From assembly GCA_963921275.4 (NCBI GenBank), contig OZ001293.3, positions 704,001 through 768,000 on the forward strand: a DNA stretch of 64,000 nt, read 5' to 3'. A program made the translations under genes and the position numbers. Numbering within the stretch: the first letter of the stretch is position 1; each line of letters begins with the position of its first letter. Origin of the DNA: an uncultured Hormoscilla sp. (GTDB lineage Bacteria > Cyanobacteriota > Cyanobacteriia > Cyanobacteriales > Desertifilaceae). Shown here in pieces: positions 11,141 to 47,506 of the stretch. The notes below the pieces were generated by a model. That model was not told where the DNA came from, made no database searches, and was given only the letters and a program-made list of their open reading frames with translations.

Positions 11141-11220
11141 CTTTTGTGCGATTAGCGCTCTGTATCTCCCCTTTTGTGCGATTAGCGCTCTGTATCTCCC
11201 CTTTTGTGCGATTAGCGCTC
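11141..11220 (+). repeat. 30-bp tandem repeat (about 2.7 copies) within a palindromic repeat cluster upstream of rbcR
   Basis: cttttgtgcgattagcgctctgtatctccc repeated. Confidence 0.85.
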
Positions 11221-11325
11221 CCAGGGGACGCCTCGCCCCAGGAGATACCTCGCCTCGGGAGACATCTCCCAACCAGGAGACACCGCTGTCCGGAGTAGAT
11301 GGTGACGATTTTAGGTATAGCAAAT

Positions 11326-18180: not shown

Positions 18181-19249
18181 TTGTGTAAATTAGTGGTTTC
18201 TACGTCAGAGTTGAGTTTCCCAGAGCAGCCATCAACTCAGAGGATTTTCCCCACTGCTGCATGTCCTGCTTTTAAGTGCCTGCTACTAGATCGGCTTTTG
18301 CAGGTGATCGACCTACAGAATATTACACAGACCGATAATGGGCGATCGCCCCTCAAGGCTATGCTCTGGGAACGCTATGACGATGGTGCTAGCATCATCT
18401 ACAGGTCGGCGATCGCCCTCCGACTAGCCAGATCCCGACAGCTGAGCCCCCAGGACCTATGCGGTGTCTTCTGGTCGCTCGATGTCTCCCATATGGAATA
18501 CATGCTACGAGAGGCTTTTGGGGATGATTTCACTATACTCGTAGTGAGTCCTGGTTGGATTCAGCTGAGTCTCGGAGATTCTAGTTTAGCCCATTGGCTG
18601 CAATTTTTTACACAGACCTCATTCCCAATCAATTCTGAGTGGGTTATGTCTGTCCGGTCATCCTCTCAGCAACCGCCGGCGGACAGGATATTCCAGTGGC
18701 AATATGCTCATGCACACGGCTACGCCTGCTGTTCCCTCCTGCGGAACGGCGATCGCTCAGGGTCGATCGCGCAGCGTGCGGGCAGCGCAATCGCCCTCTT
18801 GCCCAACCCACCGTCGGCGACACTCGGCTGGCGGGCGATCGGGCCGATTGACTGGCTCACCTGCGAGGGTCAACTACGACTGGTGCATCCAGCTGAGCGC
18901 CAGCTGATTGGCCAGTTGTTAGCAACGGTGGATGGACTTTGTTGTCCCGACCGCCCACCCCAAGTCCGCACCTTCGATGTCTCGGGAGAGCTTGATGTCC
19001 CCCGGACGCACGGCGAAAACCCGGGGGACATCATATTCGCACTACTCCCGAGACATCGCTGTCCAATTAGTCCAGTCTTTAAGTCAGAGTTTTCTGACTT
19101 TTGAGAGTGCTTGTCGGATTTGGGGGGAGGTAAAAACCCAGACACCGCAGTTAGCGACTGCGAGATTGGGATTAATTTTAGCAGTTCAGCAAATCCTGAA
19201 ATTGTTGCTATCAGAGGTTTTGGGCGTTTTTGCTCCCAGCGAAATTTAA
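18181..19249 (+). pseudogene. DALR anticodon-binding-domain protein, frameshifted by a palindromic insert
   Basis: QYAHA..CCSLLR and C-terminal CRIWGEV..LA.ARLGL lie in different frames either side of the insert at 18975-19058. Confidence 0.7.
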
Positions 19250-19276
19250 ATTTTGAAAAAAAATTTGCTTTAGGGG

Positions 19277-19305
19277 GTGACAAATCGATCTTAGTGGGTT
19301 ATAGT
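19277..19305 (+). promoter_or_regulatory. Sigma70-type promoter for the Yfr2-like RNA
   Basis: GTGACA - 17 nt - TATAGT; predicted TSS about 19312-19313. Confidence 0.7.
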
Positions 19306-19311
19306 AAGAAC

Positions 19312-20296
19312 CGTGTGGTGCGAATCGTTTTGGCGTAAGTCTGAAATATGGCGATCGCCGGGCTGGTTAATACCAGCAACTCTGGTCATCATGGGGGTTC
19401 AATTCCCCTTCCCCCAGGTACGGGGGTGACACCGGTCCTCGGTGCTGCGGAGTAACATTACCGTGGTGCCTCCCGAGGACAAATGTAGGATAAGGTCTCA
19501 GCCCAGAGACCGACGCCGCTAGGAAAGAGGCTCATGGTTAGAGCAAGCGAATCCCTGTAAGCATCGTCATCTTAAACAAGCGAAAAGAGGCTGACACGCT
19601 TGGTGCAAAATGCGCACGCAGTCCGCGTATCAGTGGTTGCACGTCACTGATATCGTACCCGAAATGACTGCCGGTGTATAGGGGAGACCTAAAAGCCTCG
19701 TGAAATGATACCAGGGAACGTTCCGGACAAGAGCGGTGCTGTCCAGATGGACAAGTCAGATGTGCGTCCGCGTAGCGTGCGCGCAGCGCCTAGCGCATGC
19801 CCGCGTGGGGAGGGAGGTCCTAAGAAGCTAATGCCCGGGGTAATGCCTGTGGATATGCAGACGTAGGACGGATATGGTAAAAAGCTCTAGGAGATAGTAG
19901 CCCTCTAAACGTGCTTAACCAGTGGCAACACTAGGTAGTAATGATGGACTTAAATCCTAACCGGGTAAAAATTTAGAGGCCCCATACGGGCACCTGTTAG
20001 TAAAGAACGGTCATAGTGGTTTTCTAGTTCCCCCCCGTAAACCTTCCGGAGTTAGGTACTCAACTAGTTCATGACTGACCATAAAGGGGCTATATTTCAT
20101 AGGGCAAGGGACAACGGGAGTAATCCCTAGTAATCCTACCCGTGACAAGGGTTTACCAACCAGTAGCCGTGTGCGGTGAAAGTCGCTCTTCAGGTTCCGA
20201 ATGGGAGGATTGTCCCGCGAGGGACAGCTCGACCCCGACCAGGAGCGAACCAGTGAGGGCACCGAGACGAAACACGGCCAGTCGTCGGTGCCCTTT
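19312..20296 (+). ncRNA. yfr2: Yfr2-like small RNA split by a group II intron (exon 1 about 19312-19317, exon 2 20241-20296)
   Basis: Ligated exons read CGUGUG|AGGAGCGAACCAGUGAGGGCACCGAGACGAAACACGGCCAGUCGUCGGUGCCCUUU: GUGUGAGGAG 5' motif plus a terminal hairpin with a GAAACA loop. Confidence 0.75.
19318..20240 (+). mobile_element. ORF-less group II (IIB-like) intron, 923 nt
   Basis: GTGCG start; EBS1 loop TGCACG at 19638-19643 pairs with exon CGTGTG; AGC-containing DV at about 20164-20197 with a mismatched 3' strand; DVI ends GACCCCGACC. Confidence 0.85.
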
Positions 20297-20483
20297 CTGA
20301 TCTAAAACATCTCCACCACCGCATCCATTGAGCAGTTATCAGTGAGCAGTGACCACGTACCATGCCGAGTGACCACTTATTAGCATAGTTTCTGGCGAGC
20401 AATATTTATATTGCTAATAATATCATGTTATCTATTGACAATTGTAAATTCGCAATTGACAATTTGGCATTTATGACATATTG

Positions 20484-20502
20484 GTGCGACTCGTTTAGTG
20501 TA
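20484..20502 (+). mobile_element. First 19 nt of an RT-family group II intron (host of a twintron)
   Basis: gtgcgactcgtttagtgta matches the 5' end of the minus-strand RT intron (gtgcgactcgttcagtgta) at 18/19 positions. Confidence 0.75.
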
Positions 20503-20866
20503 GTGCGATTCGTTCTAGTCTAACGTGGGCAACTACGGAACGCTAGGCCAGGTCCAAACTGGTAACTCTGGTATTCATGGGGGTTAGATTCCCTCTCTCC
20601 AAGTGTGGGAGTAACACCGGTCCTTAGTGCTGCTGAGTCACATCACGGTGGTGCGGAGCAAGGACTTAAATGTAGGATAGCTAGCAGCCTAAGCTAGTGA
20701 CGCCGCTAGGAAAGATGCTAATGGCTAGAACAAGCGAACCTGTGTACGCCTCGTTATCTAGAACCAGCGAAATAAGGCTTAAAGCGCTGGCCCAAAAGGG
20801 AAATGGTAGTTTGTGCTGGTTCTTGCACTTGGCCAGTATCGCACTCTAAGAACTCCCGGGGTATAG
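20503..20866 (+). mobile_element. Truncated group II intron (domain I only) of the ORF-less family
   Basis: Colinear with 23059-23423; EBS1 TGCACT at 20824-20829 pairs with upstream AGTGTA; breaks off after ctcccggggtatag. Confidence 0.8.
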
Positions 20867-22354
20867 CAGGGGCTCAGTTCGGGGCTTTTGCCTAATCTTG
20901 TGCTCCAATATGTGAGGTTCCCGTCGTATGGGCTTGCGGTCCCTTTCACTTTTACGTGTCTGATTATCTCAGTTTCGGAGTGTTTACGTATCTTCATATC
21001 ACCCTCTTTTGTCTTGCTTCGGAATCGCCATTTAGCATCCTGGTTTACAGACCAGTATTTATAGGTTATCCAGTTACTTGACTTGTTAGGGTGCCTCCTT
21101 TTGGCCCATTGCCATAGGATGTTCCATAGGTAGTTGTCCATATCGCTGTAAATTTCCTTGCTTACCACTGTCCTAAAGTAGTTTGACCATCCCCTTATTA
21201 TCGGGTTTAGCCTGCTTATTAGGGCCGCTTGTGGTGCTGTTATATGGCTAGTTACCATTTCTGATAACCGTTCTTTATGCTTCCCTATGGACTTATTACT
21301 GGGTTTGATTAGGGTTTTGAATCCTAGGGGTGTTCCGTTTGTTGATTTGCCGGTTCTGTATTTTCCCTCTTTATATTGCCTTATGTTAAATCCTAGGAAG
21401 TCGAATCCCGGGTTTTCTCCATTTAGCCTGTGGGCTATCTTTGTCTTTTCGGGCCTTCAACTCAAGCCCTATTCTTCTTAGCCACTCTGCCACCACTGTT
21501 TGCGCTCTGTCTATCATCTCCCTGTCTTCATGCATGATCACAAAGTCGTCTGCGTATCTGACTACCGTCAGCTTTCGCTTTTCCCTTTGTGTCTTTGCTA
21601 ATTCCATTACTGCTTCCTCTAACCCCTGTAGGGCTATATTGGCTAGCAGTGGGGATATGACACCCCCTTGTGGCGTTCCTGCCTCAGTTGTGTGCCATAT
21701 CTTCTTGTCAATCACCCCGGCTTTTAACCATGCCCGTACTTGTTTACGGATTGGTGACGTAGTATTTAATTTTTCGACTAGCGCTTTGTGGTCTATCCTG
21801 TCGAAACATTTCGCAATATCTGCATCTAATACCCATTTGGGTTTCTGTTTAATGCTGCTGAATATTGCCGCAATTGCATCGTGGCATCCCCGACCCGGTC
21901 TGAATCCGTATGAGTTCCCCTCCATATATGCTTCCCATTCGGGTTCAAGCGCAATCTTGAGGAGCCCTTGATTCGCGCGGTCGTGCATCGTGGGTATTCC
22001 TAAAGGACGTTTTTCTTCTCTCCCTGGCTTAGGAATCCATACACGACGTGTAGGCTTAGCCTTGTTTGAGATTTCAATCTGTCCTACCAGTTCTCGGCGT
22101 TGCTTTGGGGTTAGTGATTTCACACCATCCACACCGGCTGTCTTCTTTCCCTGGTTATCTTGTGTAACCCGTCGTACCGCTAGACATTTGGCAGCCCGGG
22201 AGCTTACCAGTAACCTTTGGAGCCTGCGAACTTTTTGCTTATTGCCTTCTTGTGCCGCTCTGTAAATTCGTTTTTGCAACTTAAAGACTACCCGTTCCAG
22301 CCGAGGCCAGGGGATATCCTTCCATTCATTCATCGATTTTGACATCGTGCTCAT
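20867..22354 (-). pseudogene. Group II intron reverse transcriptase/maturase, frameshifted near 21453 and truncated
   Basis: GKKTAGVDG, RPLGIP, YGFRPGR, GTPQGGVISPLLANI, RYADD; domain X LNPIIRGWSNYF after the frameshift. Confidence 0.92.
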
Positions 22355-22973
22355 GACGTATGTATTGCTACTTACAACTTTACAATTGACGTTACCGTGA
22401 GGGCGTCAGCATATCCCATCCATTACAGAAAGGCGTTAGCTTCTCCGCGAAATCTTTCCCAGATATAACCTGCCGAATGTAAGCAGATGTTGCGCCTTTG
22501 GTGGCTGCTCAACCTATCGACCGGTGGTTGAGAGTATGTACCTGGTTTACTTCGTTCCTCTAGATGATTGGTCGTAGTTTTAGGTGGATTCCTTATGCCG
22601 GGTTTATTGTCGGTGCTTATTGGTCAGAATTCAAACCGCCAATGACCATTATCCTTTCCCTTTTGGGCCAGCGTGTTTAGCCTTATTACGCTGGTTTGTC
22701 GTAACGACACTGTAAATCTTTGCTTTCGCTCACCGTGACTACTTGCACGCTGCGCGAAAAATCGGCGATGACCGGTTTAGGCTACCAGCCAGGGCGCCTT
22801 TCGTACCCGCTTCACGGATTGATGCCATCGCTACCGTGGGGTAAGTGCTGTCACTCCTGCACCTGGAGGGGTGGGCTTTCACCACCATCATCTAAAAGTT
22901 ATCAAGGCTAATGGAGCCTTGCCAGTGGTCCCCCTTCGGTTATCACCGGTGGTTTACACTGAACGAGTCGCAC
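20867..22973 (-). mobile_element. RT-encoding group II intron (chloroplast-like class), 3' end deleted
   Basis: GTGCG at 22973 on the minus strand, structured 5' region, then RT ORF; no HNH domain, DV or DVI before the junction with the opposing intron. Confidence 0.85.
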
Positions 22974-23045
22974 TAAAACGCCGACATTTTAACTTCTCTG
23001 TGCTGGGAAGCCGTAAAGTGTGTCTTACTACGAACGACTGACCCT

Positions 23046-24030
23046 CTATAGTGAGTCTGTGCGATTCGTTCTAGCCTAACGTGGTCAAACACGGAACGCT
23101 AGCCCGGTTTCATTAGCCGGGAACTCTGACCGCATGGGGGTTAAATTCCCCTCCCCCCAGGTACGGGGGTGACACCGGTCCTCGGTGCTACGAAGCGACA
23201 TCATCGTGGTGCTAAGCGAGGACTCAAATGTAGGATAACTGGCAGCCTAAGCCGGTGACGCCGCTAGGAAAGATATCCAAGGTTAGAGCAGGCAAACATG
23301 TGCAAGCCTCGTTATAAGGAACCAGCGAAATAAGGCTATATGCGCTGGCCTAAAAAGGAAATGGTAGCTAGTATTAGTTTTAGACTCTGGCTAATATAGT
23401 ACTCAAATAGCTCCCGGGGTATAGTGTGGACCTAAAGGTATCGCGAAATGTTGTTAGGGAACGAAGTAACCTCTCGTGTGCTGTCCATCAGGACAAGTTA
23501 GATGTTAAGCGCAAGCCACGGGGGGAGGGATGGCCCAAGAAGCGAATGCCCGGGGTAATTCCTGGGATAACATCTACAGTAATGTAGATGATGCTGGGTA
23601 GCCAGCGCTGACGTGGGTCGGTGATACTAGGAAGCTGCTGGAATGAGTAATCCTAAAAAGCCACGGAACTAATCCGAAACGCAAGTGGAGGATAAGGTAT
23701 GGATAACTGGTAAAACTGACTTGAAAATGGTGATACTAACGGTTATCAGAACAACCACTCGCTAAACCAGGAAAGGGAAGAAAAGACAGGCGGCAAGGGC
23801 TAACGGAAGTAATTCCTATTAAGTCTACCTATGAAAAGGGCCTAGTACCCAGTAGCCGGATGCGGTGAAAATCGCAAGTCCGGTTCCTCAAGGGAGGGTC
23901 GGGAAGCGATTCCCGGCTCGACCCCATCCAAATCATTTGTGTAAATATTCTGGTAAATCAGCGCCCAAACCCTTGCGGGGCAAGTATTTCAGCAAACACA
24001 GATTGCACAACTAATTTAGGCTAGCTATAG
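23046..24030. mobile_element. About 114-bp CTATAG-ended MITE whose left terminus is interrupted by a group II intron
   Basis: Removing 23059-23929 gives ctatagtgagtctaaatcatttgtgtaa ... ttgcacaactaatttaggctagctatag, an imperfect TIR. Confidence 0.7.
23059..23929 (+). mobile_element. ORF-less group II intron, 871 nt, copy 1
   Basis: GTGCG start; EBS1 AGACTC at about 23382-23387 versus exon GAGTCT; well-paired DV agccggatgcggtgaaaatcgcaagtccggtt; DVI ends ACCCCATCC. Confidence 0.92.
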
Positions 24031-24142
24031 GCGCTTTCGTGCCTGGGAAGTAGTAAAGTGTGTCTTACTACGAACGGGGAAGACACACTTTACTGCTTAC
24101 TACGAACGACCGGAAGCGTAAGTCCTGACTAACTGACAGATT

Positions 24143-45645: not shown

Positions 45646-45732
45646 TGTGGCCTGGAGTTCCTAAATTATGAGTCAAGTGGCTGGGGAATTGTTGTAAGAC
45701 TGAAAAATTACTATCCTTGATGACAGGAGGTT

Positions 45733-47506
45733 ATGCTGACTCTAGAAAATATCTACGAAATTTATGAAAGACATAAAGATGCCTTCAATGCTAGAGTTGA
45801 AGAGTTTAAACTGGGAGACAAAAGGTTTAACTTTAACGATAGAAAATCAATTTTAGGAATTGTTAATCTTTCCACAGATTCTTGGTATAAAAACAGCGTC
45901 TGTTATAATCCAGAGCAAGCTGTACGTCGTGCAATGGTACAGAAAATTCAAGGTGCAGATATCATAGACATTGGTATAGAATCTACAGTGCAAACAACAG
46001 AGAGAGTCGATGCTTTTAAACAAAACAGTAAAGTTTTGCCAGTTCTGGAAAGATTAAGTCAAGAATGTGTTTTAACTTCAGTGGAAACTTATTATCCTGA
46101 AGTTGTCAGAGAATGTTTAAAGGCTGGGGCAAATGTTATTAATTTGACAGGAGCAGAGAAAAGGGAGAAAATTTACCAAATTGTGTCTGAGTTCGATGCG
46201 GGAATTATTATGTGTTACGTGCAAGGGAAAAACGTGAGGGAGTTGGGAGACCTTAAGGTTGGAGACGATCCAATAGATTTAGTGTACGATTATTTCGCCC
46301 GAGAAGTGGAAACAGCAACTAAATTGGGTGTCCGAAAGATTTTTATCGATCCTGGAATTTGCTTTAGCTACAGCAATCTTTACACAAAAGAGGAATTCTA
46401 TTCGTTGCGTATTTGATATCAGATAACAACTCTTTTAAATAGTTTTGGATGGGGTCGAGCCGGGAATCGCTTCCCGACCCTCCCTTGAGGAACCGGACTT
46501 GCGATTTTCACCGCATCCGGCTACTGGGTACTAGGCCCTTTTCATAGGTAGACTTAATAGGAATTACTTCCGTTAGCCCTTGCCGCCTGTCTTTTCTTCC
46601 CTTTCCTGGTTTAGCGAGTGGTTGTTCTGATAACCGTTAGTATCACCATTTTCAAGTCAGTTTTACCAGTTATCCATACCTTATCCTCCACTTGCGTTTC
46701 GGATTAGTTCCGTGGCTTTTTAGGATTACTCATTCCAGCAGCTTCCTAGTATCACCGACCCACGTCAGCGCTGGCTACCCAGCATCATCTACATTACTGT
46801 AGATGTTATCCCAGGAATTACCCCGGGCATTCGCTTCTTGGGCCATCCCTCCCCCCGTGGCTTGCGCTTAACATCTAACTTGTCCTGATGGACAGCACAC
46901 GAGAGGTTACTTCGTTCCCTAACAACATTTCGCGATACCTTTAGGTCCACACTATACCCCGGGAGCTATTTGAGTACTATATTAGCCAGAGTCTAAAACT
47001 AATACTAGCTACCATTTCCTTTTTAGGCCAGCGCATATAGCCTTATTTCGCTGGTTCCTTATAACGAGGCTTGCACATGTTTGCCTGCTCTAACCTTGGA
47101 TATCTTTCCTAGCGGCGTCACCGGCTTAGGCTGCCAGTTATCCTACATTTGAGTCCTCGCTTAGCACCACGATGATGTCGCTTCGTAGCACCGAGGACCG
47201 GTGTCACCCCCGTACCTGGGGGGAGGGGAATTTAACCCCCATGCGGTCAGAGTTCCCGGCTAATGAAACCGGGCTAGCGTTCCGTGTTTGACCACGTTAG
47301 GCTAGAACGAATCGCACAGACTCAGGAGGTTAGGGTTTCCAATTTGCAACCAAGTCCCCACTGCATCGGAATGTTTTGCAGAAGAGTTCAGAAGTTCTCA
47401 AACTTTTACTGCAGTGCTGGCGATATTGGGAAAAACAGATCTTATGAGAACTCATGAAGTGCCTAAAGTTAAGGCTGTTTTGGATACTCTGAGTTTATTT
47501 GAGTAG
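45733..47506 (+). pseudogene. Dihydropteroate synthase-like protein with an internal TGA and an antisense intron
   Basis: GIVNLSTDS, GADIIDIG.EST, IDPG; LRI*YQITTLLNSF | RLRRLGFPIC...RTHEV rejoins in frame after removing 46447-47317. Confidence 0.85.
46447..47317 (-). mobile_element. ORF-less group II intron, 871 nt, copy 2
   Basis: Reverse complement of 23059-23929 with the same length; upstream exon also ends TGAGTCT. Confidence 0.93.

Follow-up and report, generated by a model that had tools for sequence, protein, structure and literature searches.

In the genome of an uncultured Hormoscilla species, the invariant 5' motif of a gene for a Yfr2-type small RNA (sRNA) is split by a group II intron that lacks an open reading frame (ORF). 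The insertion has exact ends, the interrupted gene is, by its sequence and predicted fold, a Yfr2-type sRNA, and the catalytic domain V of the intron is defective. We put at roughly 0.6 the probability that this mobile-element hit has disabled, or strongly knocked down, the sRNA copy. The intron is a new but ordinary addition to the ORF-less group II introns of cyanobacteria, which are best known from Thermosynechococcus, and its host is an ordinary Yfr2-type sRNA; it is their combination that is unusual.

The Yfr2 RNAs are among the most widely conserved sRNAs of cyanobacteria. According to passages in two reports, their conserved 5' motif pairs with the sRNA Yfr1, to which it is described as 'nearly complementary' only (PMC6778093, PMC6974561). 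Yfr1 binding has been tested for four Nostoc copies of Yfr2 (PMC6974561). An allele in which this motif is broken can be compared with relatives that retain it. Species-representative genomes were scanned with an alignment of the protein encoded upstream of the sRNA, and the best 80 of 361 confirmed relatives served as comparison loci. Those named most often below are L001 (a Hormoscilla MAG), L002 (Hormoscilla sp. SP12CHS1) and L017 (an uncultured cyanobacterium). The window is the whole 64-kb stretch of DNA that was analysed, and its relevant features are collected in Table 1.

Table 1. Coordinates of the interrupted sRNA gene, the intron and its relatives within the window
Feature	Position	Strand	Basis
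DALR anticodon-binding-domain pseudogene, conserved upstream neighbour of the sRNA	18181..19249	+	homologues 72-75% identical, PF05746
sRNA promoter GTGACA-17-TATAGT	19277..19305	+	10/12 consensus positions
5' exon, about 5-6 nt (CGUGUG or GUGUG) = IBS1	19312..19317	+	start inferred; EBS1 pairing
ORF-less group II intron, 923 nt	19318..20240	+	empty sites; sister homology; weak Rfam Intron_gpII and D1D4-2 matches
EBS1 UGCACG, loop of domain I hairpin	19638..19643	+	aligns with sister AGACUC; complements CGUGUG
Domain V, AGC triad and GAAA loop kept, helix beside bulge broken	20164..20197	+	20 bits; fold; 27/34 identical to sister
Domain VI, unpaired A20232, GCGA loop	20203..20235	+	fold; 5 pairs changed on both sides versus sister
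3' exon = Yfr2-type sRNA body, AGGAG...	20241..20302	+	R1 79.7 bits; Cyano-1 23 bits; identical to L002
Sister intron copy 1, 871 nt, intact domains V and VI	23059..23929	+	Rfam 44.4 bits
Sister intron copy 2, 871 nt, 100% identical to copy 1	46447..47317	-	antisense in folP-like gene, ends fixed

An intron within the 5' motif of a Yfr2-type sRNA gene

The window, which has 47% G+C and contains 58 HIP1 octamers, matches the L002 contig at 97.5% identity over 1345 nt and at 91.5% over 5507 nt, and the nearest proteins to the product of the upstream DALR gene are those of Hormoscilla MAGs. Both L001 and L002 hold the same locus without the insert. In each, the same promoter is found, TATAGTA(A/G)GAACCGTGTG is followed by AGGAGCGAACC with nothing between, and CCGTGTG thus runs directly into the latter. 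Because GUGUG abuts AGGAG in these two alleles, the insert must comprise exactly 19318-20240, and no alternative placement, even one shifted by a single base, recovers the empty site. Joined by script, the two exons of the window reproduce the L002 allele as an exact 70-nt run. The L002 allele can therefore serve as a proxy for the ligated RNA and, the ends being exact, ligation would restore the wild-type sRNA exactly. The insertion probably postdates the split from the Hormoscilla SP12CHS1 lineage.

The promoter lies where the preliminary description of this DNA had placed it, and a similar element, GTGACA(AA)-17-TAnnnT, occurs at equal distance in L001, L002, L017, L069, L075 and L076. A promoter scan of 19000-20600 returned four promoter-like sites, against 1.6 +/- 1.3 in shuffled sequences. 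In the orthologues, 6-7 nt separate the end of the -10 box from GTGTGAGGAG; since GUGUG begins at this distance, the predicted 5' exon is 5-6 nt long. From this promoter geometry, transcription would start near 19312, giving the small RNA a start of its own.

Beyond the intron, the 3' exon folds into a hairpin (20251-20299) with a 12-nt loop (20269-20280) that begins with the GAAACA noted earlier from the window. In the fold of the identical L002 allele, the stem carries a three-pair top helix with a single bulged G on its 3' side. Against the Rfam family Cyano-1 (RF01701), whose gathering score is 41 bits, the L002 allele scores 36.4 bits (E 5.8e-5 in a small search) and aligns with the full length of the model, positions 1-69, including the 5' GUGUGAGGAG. 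The sRNA of the window thus stays below the gathering score both as the 3' exon alone (23 bits) and as the L002 allele. The L017 orthologue reaches 42.4 bits at the equivalent position and is the only one of ten orthologous loci scanned to exceed the threshold; as the other nine fall short, the DALR-linked subfamily straddles the Rfam limit.

A covariance model of our own (R1), built from 18 orthologues, places the sRNA just downstream of a DALR-domain gene and on the same strand at 36 loci among the best 80 of 361 relatives, with scores of 89-99 bits. The window scores lower than L002 (79.7 versus 96.8 bits) because GUGUG is missing from its 3' exon. Four pairs of the sRNA hairpin change on both sides, and none of 500 shuffles reached the observed covariation values. 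This arrangement behind a DALR-domain gene occurs in Nostoc, Hormoscilla, Anabaenopsis, Kastovskya, Potamolinea and a Leptolyngbyaceae MAG (for example L008 10957-11023, L017 10879-10945 and L069 2070-2136); among the 80 loci, those of Microcoleus, Tychonema and Okeania do not carry the sRNA directly behind the DALR-domain gene. Model R1 found no second copy of the sRNA in the 64-kb window, and no Yfr1 gene was found there.

The first 18 nt of the sRNA are invariant in all 18 orthologues, including the 5' motif GUGUGAGGAG, which is unpaired in the fold. In the window, this motif exists only as two halves, at 19313-19317 and from 20241 onward. Several proposals of the preliminary description can be judged from these comparisons. 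Its 923-nt insert at 19318-20240 has its ends fixed independently by the empty sites, and the intron-less allele downstream of the DALR gene that it suggested looking for in relatives is found in L001 and L002. Its 3' boundary, argued from a sister intron, agrees with those empty sites as well as with the reading frame of the folP-like gene that hosts the sister. The empty alleles and the conservation of the motif in 18/18 orthologues confirm that the intron splits the conserved 5' motif of a Yfr2-type sRNA, between G5 and A6, and the seed is indeed present only in the ligated form, GUGUG and AGGAG lying 923 nt apart in the window. The very short 5' exon that it envisaged is consistent with the spacing between the -10 box and GUGUG in the orthologues, from which the start is predicted.

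Intron structure and exon recognition

The insert begins with GTGCGA at 19318, of which GUGCG (19318-19322) fits the group II consensus GUGYG. It holds no long ORF between 19318 and 20240; the ORFs of at least 50 amino acids that touch it encode 53, 83, 52 and 70 residues. Aligned with its sister, it is identical at 542 of 863 columns (63%). In a pairwise consensus fold of the two introns, 36 of 185 pairs have changed on both sides without losing the pairing, so that the two lineages must have diverged as structured RNAs. When the minimum-energy fold of each intron was mapped onto the other, 165 of 265 pairs were kept in one direction and 154 of 287 in the other, a noisy and symmetrical result. 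The GUGYG start, the sister homology, the compensated helices, a domain VI and the EBS1-IBS1 pairing together uphold the original assignment of the insert to the group II introns. A blastn search at E 1e-5 found no relatives of the intron in the comparison loci (the best 80 of 361 relatives), and seven plasmid records in PLSDB match the intron query, each over only 7-9% of its length.

The 923-nt intron ends in ...CCCCGACC and the sister in ...CCCCATCC; both finish with CC, extending two bases past the Rfam model, and the next base is A. A 3' splice site at 20238/20239, which would follow the end of the Rfam model (20239) and bring the branch A to -7/-8, was rejected because the empty sites put the CC inside the insert. 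The possibility that the final CC had been carried over from a donor exon was discarded on the same evidence, and the insert of the sister also ends in CC. Two single-base differences between the introns may be recorded here. In one, at a putative domain II/III junction located solely from the predicted fold, an A of the sister corresponds to U in the 923-nt intron; in the other, three bases ahead of the 3' end, a U of the sister corresponds to A in the 923-nt intron. The swap resembles the usual gamma pairing displaced by two bases.

Both sister copies are preceded by GAGTCT and followed by AAA. One of them interrupts a dihydropteroate-synthase-like (folP-like) gene whose homologues continue LLNSF-RLRKLGFP across the site; in the window, LLNSF runs to 46446 and RLRRLGFP resumes at 47318, which fixes the sister insert as exactly 46447-47317. 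Their complete identity points to very recent mobility and to a working maturase somewhere in the genome. Domain IV of the sister retains a 31-aa maturase-domain remnant that is 55% identical to a broken frame at 20779-21258. In the 64-kb window there is a single reverse transcriptase/maturase reading frame, which is frameshifted, and no intact maturase. That frame lies in a pile-up of group II intron pieces, spanning 20484-23929 and absent from L002. It contains 19 nt of an intron start, from position 20484, a truncated copy that shares 78% identity with the sister (20503-20866), a minus-strand intron from 22973 with a reverse transcriptase frame (22354-21386), a maturase frame (21258-20779) and the frameshift between them, and the complete sister copy 1 (23059-23929). 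An identical 23-nt motif, for which no occurrence is expected by chance, flanks the sister copy in this region (23013-23035 and 24053-24075), and the same motif was seen by eye in L001 at about 11204-11226, downstream of the sRNA.

Recognition of the 5' exon can be followed by comparison with the sister. EBS1 of the 923-nt intron forms six pairs with CGUGUG, four of them Watson-Crick and two G-U, and in the same alignment column the sister carries AGACUC, the exact complement of its own 5' flank GAGTCT at both sister sites. This column-for-column correspondence, together with the complementarity, substantiates the EBS1 that had been proposed from the window, with its two wobbles. The IBS1-EBS1 duplex is worth -5.4 kcal/mol, or -3.0 kcal/mol with a 5-nt exon. 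An IBS2 upstream of the transcription start, also proposed, was not recovered: the EBS2-homologous loop (CGCACG, 19613-19618) finds no complement in the 16 nt upstream of IBS1 and instead matches the same CGUGUG as EBS1. With no EBS2-IBS2 pairing, and with an EBS2 loop that fits CGUGUG, the site has the look of an ectopic insertion for which EBS1 was the sole guide. The sequence CCGUGUG, the last 7 nt before the intron, recurs in the 5' strand of the damaged domain V (20168-20174), perhaps by coincidence.

Domain V is a 34-nt hairpin in which pairs 6-29, 7-28 and 9-26 have become G.A, U.C and U.U. Three of the nine lower-helix pairs are thus mismatched, and both bulge bases differ from those of the sister. 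The Rfam domain V score is 20 bits, below the RF00029 gathering score of 40, versus 44.4 bits in the sisters; the fold, at -7.2 kcal/mol and a z-score of -0.62, is no better than that of shuffled sequences, whereas the sister reaches -17.4 kcal/mol and -4.84. The early caution that the strands of this domain pair poorly therefore holds, and more strongly than it was first expressed. A faster divergence of domain V than of the domain I core was considered and dropped (27/34 versus 72/83 identical positions, Fisher p 0.40). A rough comparison of positions within or abutting consensus helices gives 16 at which the sister alone pairs and 5 at which the 923-nt intron alone pairs, a split with a binomial probability of about 0.03 by our own estimate, and suggests some uncompensated decay elsewhere in the intron too. 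At least three uncompensated changes among eight helix positions exceed what neutral decay since the split from L002 would lead one to expect, and the domain V defect may for this reason have another history. In domain VI, the candidate branch point A20232 lies 9 nt from the 3' end, a distance shared by the sister, for which the folP frame defines the end; the usual distance in group II introns is 7-8 nt.

Fate of the interrupted gene

The sRNA is surrounded by other disrupted genes. Relative to L001, the upstream DALR gene has acquired an 85-nt insert at about 18970-19054 that shifts the frame, so that the C-terminal part lies in another frame; the ends of this insert are 10-nt inverted repeats, and from its sequence it looks like a miniature mobile repeat. 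A Pfam scan of the truncated DALR frame gave no match, and the domain is assigned through its homologues. The folP-like gene (Pterin_bind, 45724-47503) is split by a sister intron that, being antisense to the gene, is not spliceable from its mRNA, and at 46414-46416 of the window an in-frame TGA takes the place of the Q, K or R found in homologues. Elsewhere in the window, 11141-11284 holds a perfect 30-nt tandem repeat in 2.7 copies, the unit of which contains GTGCGA, followed by a looser 17-nt repeat in 3.8 copies.

The course of events that we favour can be outlined as follows. A distant relative of the group II intron family active in this genome, itself devoid of an ORF, would have entered an ectopic site, mainly by means of EBS1; its target would have been the Yfr2-type sRNA gene behind the DALR gene, within the invariant 5' motif. 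The intact sRNA promoter would now yield a precursor of about 1 kb in which the two halves of the motif are held apart by the intron. The catalytic domain V no longer forms in the predicted fold, an IBS2 contact is lacking, and only five or six pairs hold the 5' exon. Given the state of domain V, the lack of IBS2 and this weak hold on the exon, ligation would be absent or very inefficient, and splicing has probably been lost or become so. The outcome would be a knockout or a strong knock-down, one of several mobile-element hits beside other broken genes.

A different outcome follows if the intron is still removed with the help of a maturase encoded elsewhere in the genome, perhaps one that tolerates the odd domain V. 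Mature Yfr2 would then depend on splicing, possibly conditionally, and the 5' exon would consist of IBS1 alone. We hold this to be rather unlikely. The sense orientation and the exact, family-type ends, with which ligation would yield the wild-type RNA without a single changed letter, have to be set against a domain V with three mismatched pairs beside the bulge and half the bit score of the sisters. Domain VI is intact, the promoter and exon are fully conserved and the EBS1-IBS1 pairing is retained; however, no IBS2 accompanies it, and a free exon of 5-6 nt, bound at -3 to -5.4 kcal/mol, would be prone to dissociate ahead of the second step. Passages in a study of Thermosynechococcus describe ORF-less introns for whose splicing and mobilisation other introns supply the proteins (PMC2882425), and the identical sister copies indicate that a maturase was recently active here; but the 64 kb contain no intact maturase, and at only 63% identity to the demonstrably mobile family, recognition of the 923-nt intron by the protein of that family is uncertain.

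The more specific proposal, that a maturase supplied in trans excises the intron and that Yfr1-sequestering Yfr2 is made only when splicing is active, appears to us quite improbable. The preliminary description had put forward such a working splicing-gated regulator and had named an sRNA knockout as the alternative. The broken domain V, the missing EBS2-IBS2 pairing, the weak IBS1-EBS1 duplex, the want of an intact maturase in the window and the broken neighbours tell against the former and lead us to judge the latter the better account. Very unlikely, in our estimation, is a third course, in which the intron is dead and the long transcript is processed to a shortened Yfr2 that comprises the 3' hairpin without the 5' motif and acts only through its loop motif, not on Yfr1. 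The hairpin and loop are fully conserved, as this would predict, although the conservation of the 63 nt concerned is not statistically compelling, the plus strand has no promoter-like site in 19306-20434, and no processing site could be predicted.

Some observations run counter to a loss of the sRNA and should be stated with it. The promoter and the sRNA body are untouched, with no difference from L002 in 70 nt, while the flanking intergenic DNA is about 88% identical; roughly two to three changes would be expected without constraint, and the probability of none (P ~0.08, our own rough estimate) makes this weak evidence. The orientation of the intron is sense, its EBS1 fits the site, its domain VI is sound and 36 of its pairs are compensated. 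In addition, the 3' end is of the family type, a maturase was recently at work, and domain V has kept its AGC triad and GAAA loop.

Relation to known systems

In most respects the host sRNA resembles Yfr2 as it is known. Passages in a report on Synechocystis Yfr2a-c (PMC2662882) describe RNAs whose conserved 5' end is unpaired and whose 12-nt loop lies four positions from an interruption of one base. Like the Yfr2 RNAs of RF01701, as far as these descriptions extend, the host has a single-stranded GUGUGAGGAG-type 5' motif, a long stem, capped by a 12-nt loop that starts with GAAACA and interrupted by one base at four positions from this loop, and a strong-looking promoter of its own. It departs from them in the 923 nt that divide its gene within the 5' motif. 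The DALR-linked subfamily to which it belongs differs further in scoring mostly below the Rfam gathering score and in its 18-nt conserved 5' stretch, which is longer than the motif in those descriptions.

For the intron, the closest parallel is the TeI3 family of Thermosynechococcus elongatus. Passages in the report on that family (PMC2882425) describe small ORF-less introns in multiple copies in a cyanobacterium, their insertion into other introns and mobile DNA, their reliance on the proteins of other introns and the selection of targets by EBS-IBS pairing. All of these have counterparts here, where the sister keeps its 31-aa maturase remnant. Unlike that family, the intron described here occupies a site with IBS1 only, lies 5-6 nt from the predicted transcription start of an sRNA gene and has a defective domain V. 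Searches of open-access full texts found no group II intron in Yfr2 or in a trans-acting sRNA gene, and none for Hormoscilla.

Functional RNA genes with introns of the autocatalytic type are familiar from group I introns in cyanobacterial tRNA genes and from group II introns in plastid tRNA genes. As in those genes, the active sequence of the sRNA would exist only after ligation. The introns of tRNA genes are, however, old, conserved and known to be spliced, whereas the present one, lineage-specific and missing from the two nearest genomes, is catalytically impaired, judging from its modelled fold. The locus also recalls genes of reduced or symbiont genomes that have been disrupted by an insertion sequence or a miniature repeat, being a recent, lineage-specific hit on a conserved gene beside other disrupted genes. 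It differs from these cases in that the element is a sense-oriented ribozyme-type intron, and for this reason the disruption is, in principle, reversible at the level of RNA.

The significance of the allele depends on which of these outcomes is correct. If the intron is dead, the locus represents a tidy but ordinary instance of mobile-element damage in a Hormoscilla-type genome. Were excision to occur, this would be the first bacterial trans-acting sRNA with a seed assembled by group II splicing, and a natural intron using an IBS1-only, triphosphate-ended 5' exon of 5-6 nt together with a non-canonical domain V. A by-product of wider use is the conserved pairing of a DALR gene with Yfr2, found at 36 of the 80 loci (the best 80 of 361 relatives), together with the 18-nt length of the conserved 5' stretch. 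An allele whose Yfr1-binding motif is split by an intron offers either a clean natural knockout or a natural test case, and raises the questions of how short the 5' exon of a group II intron can be and whether RNA splicing may act as a gate for an sRNA.
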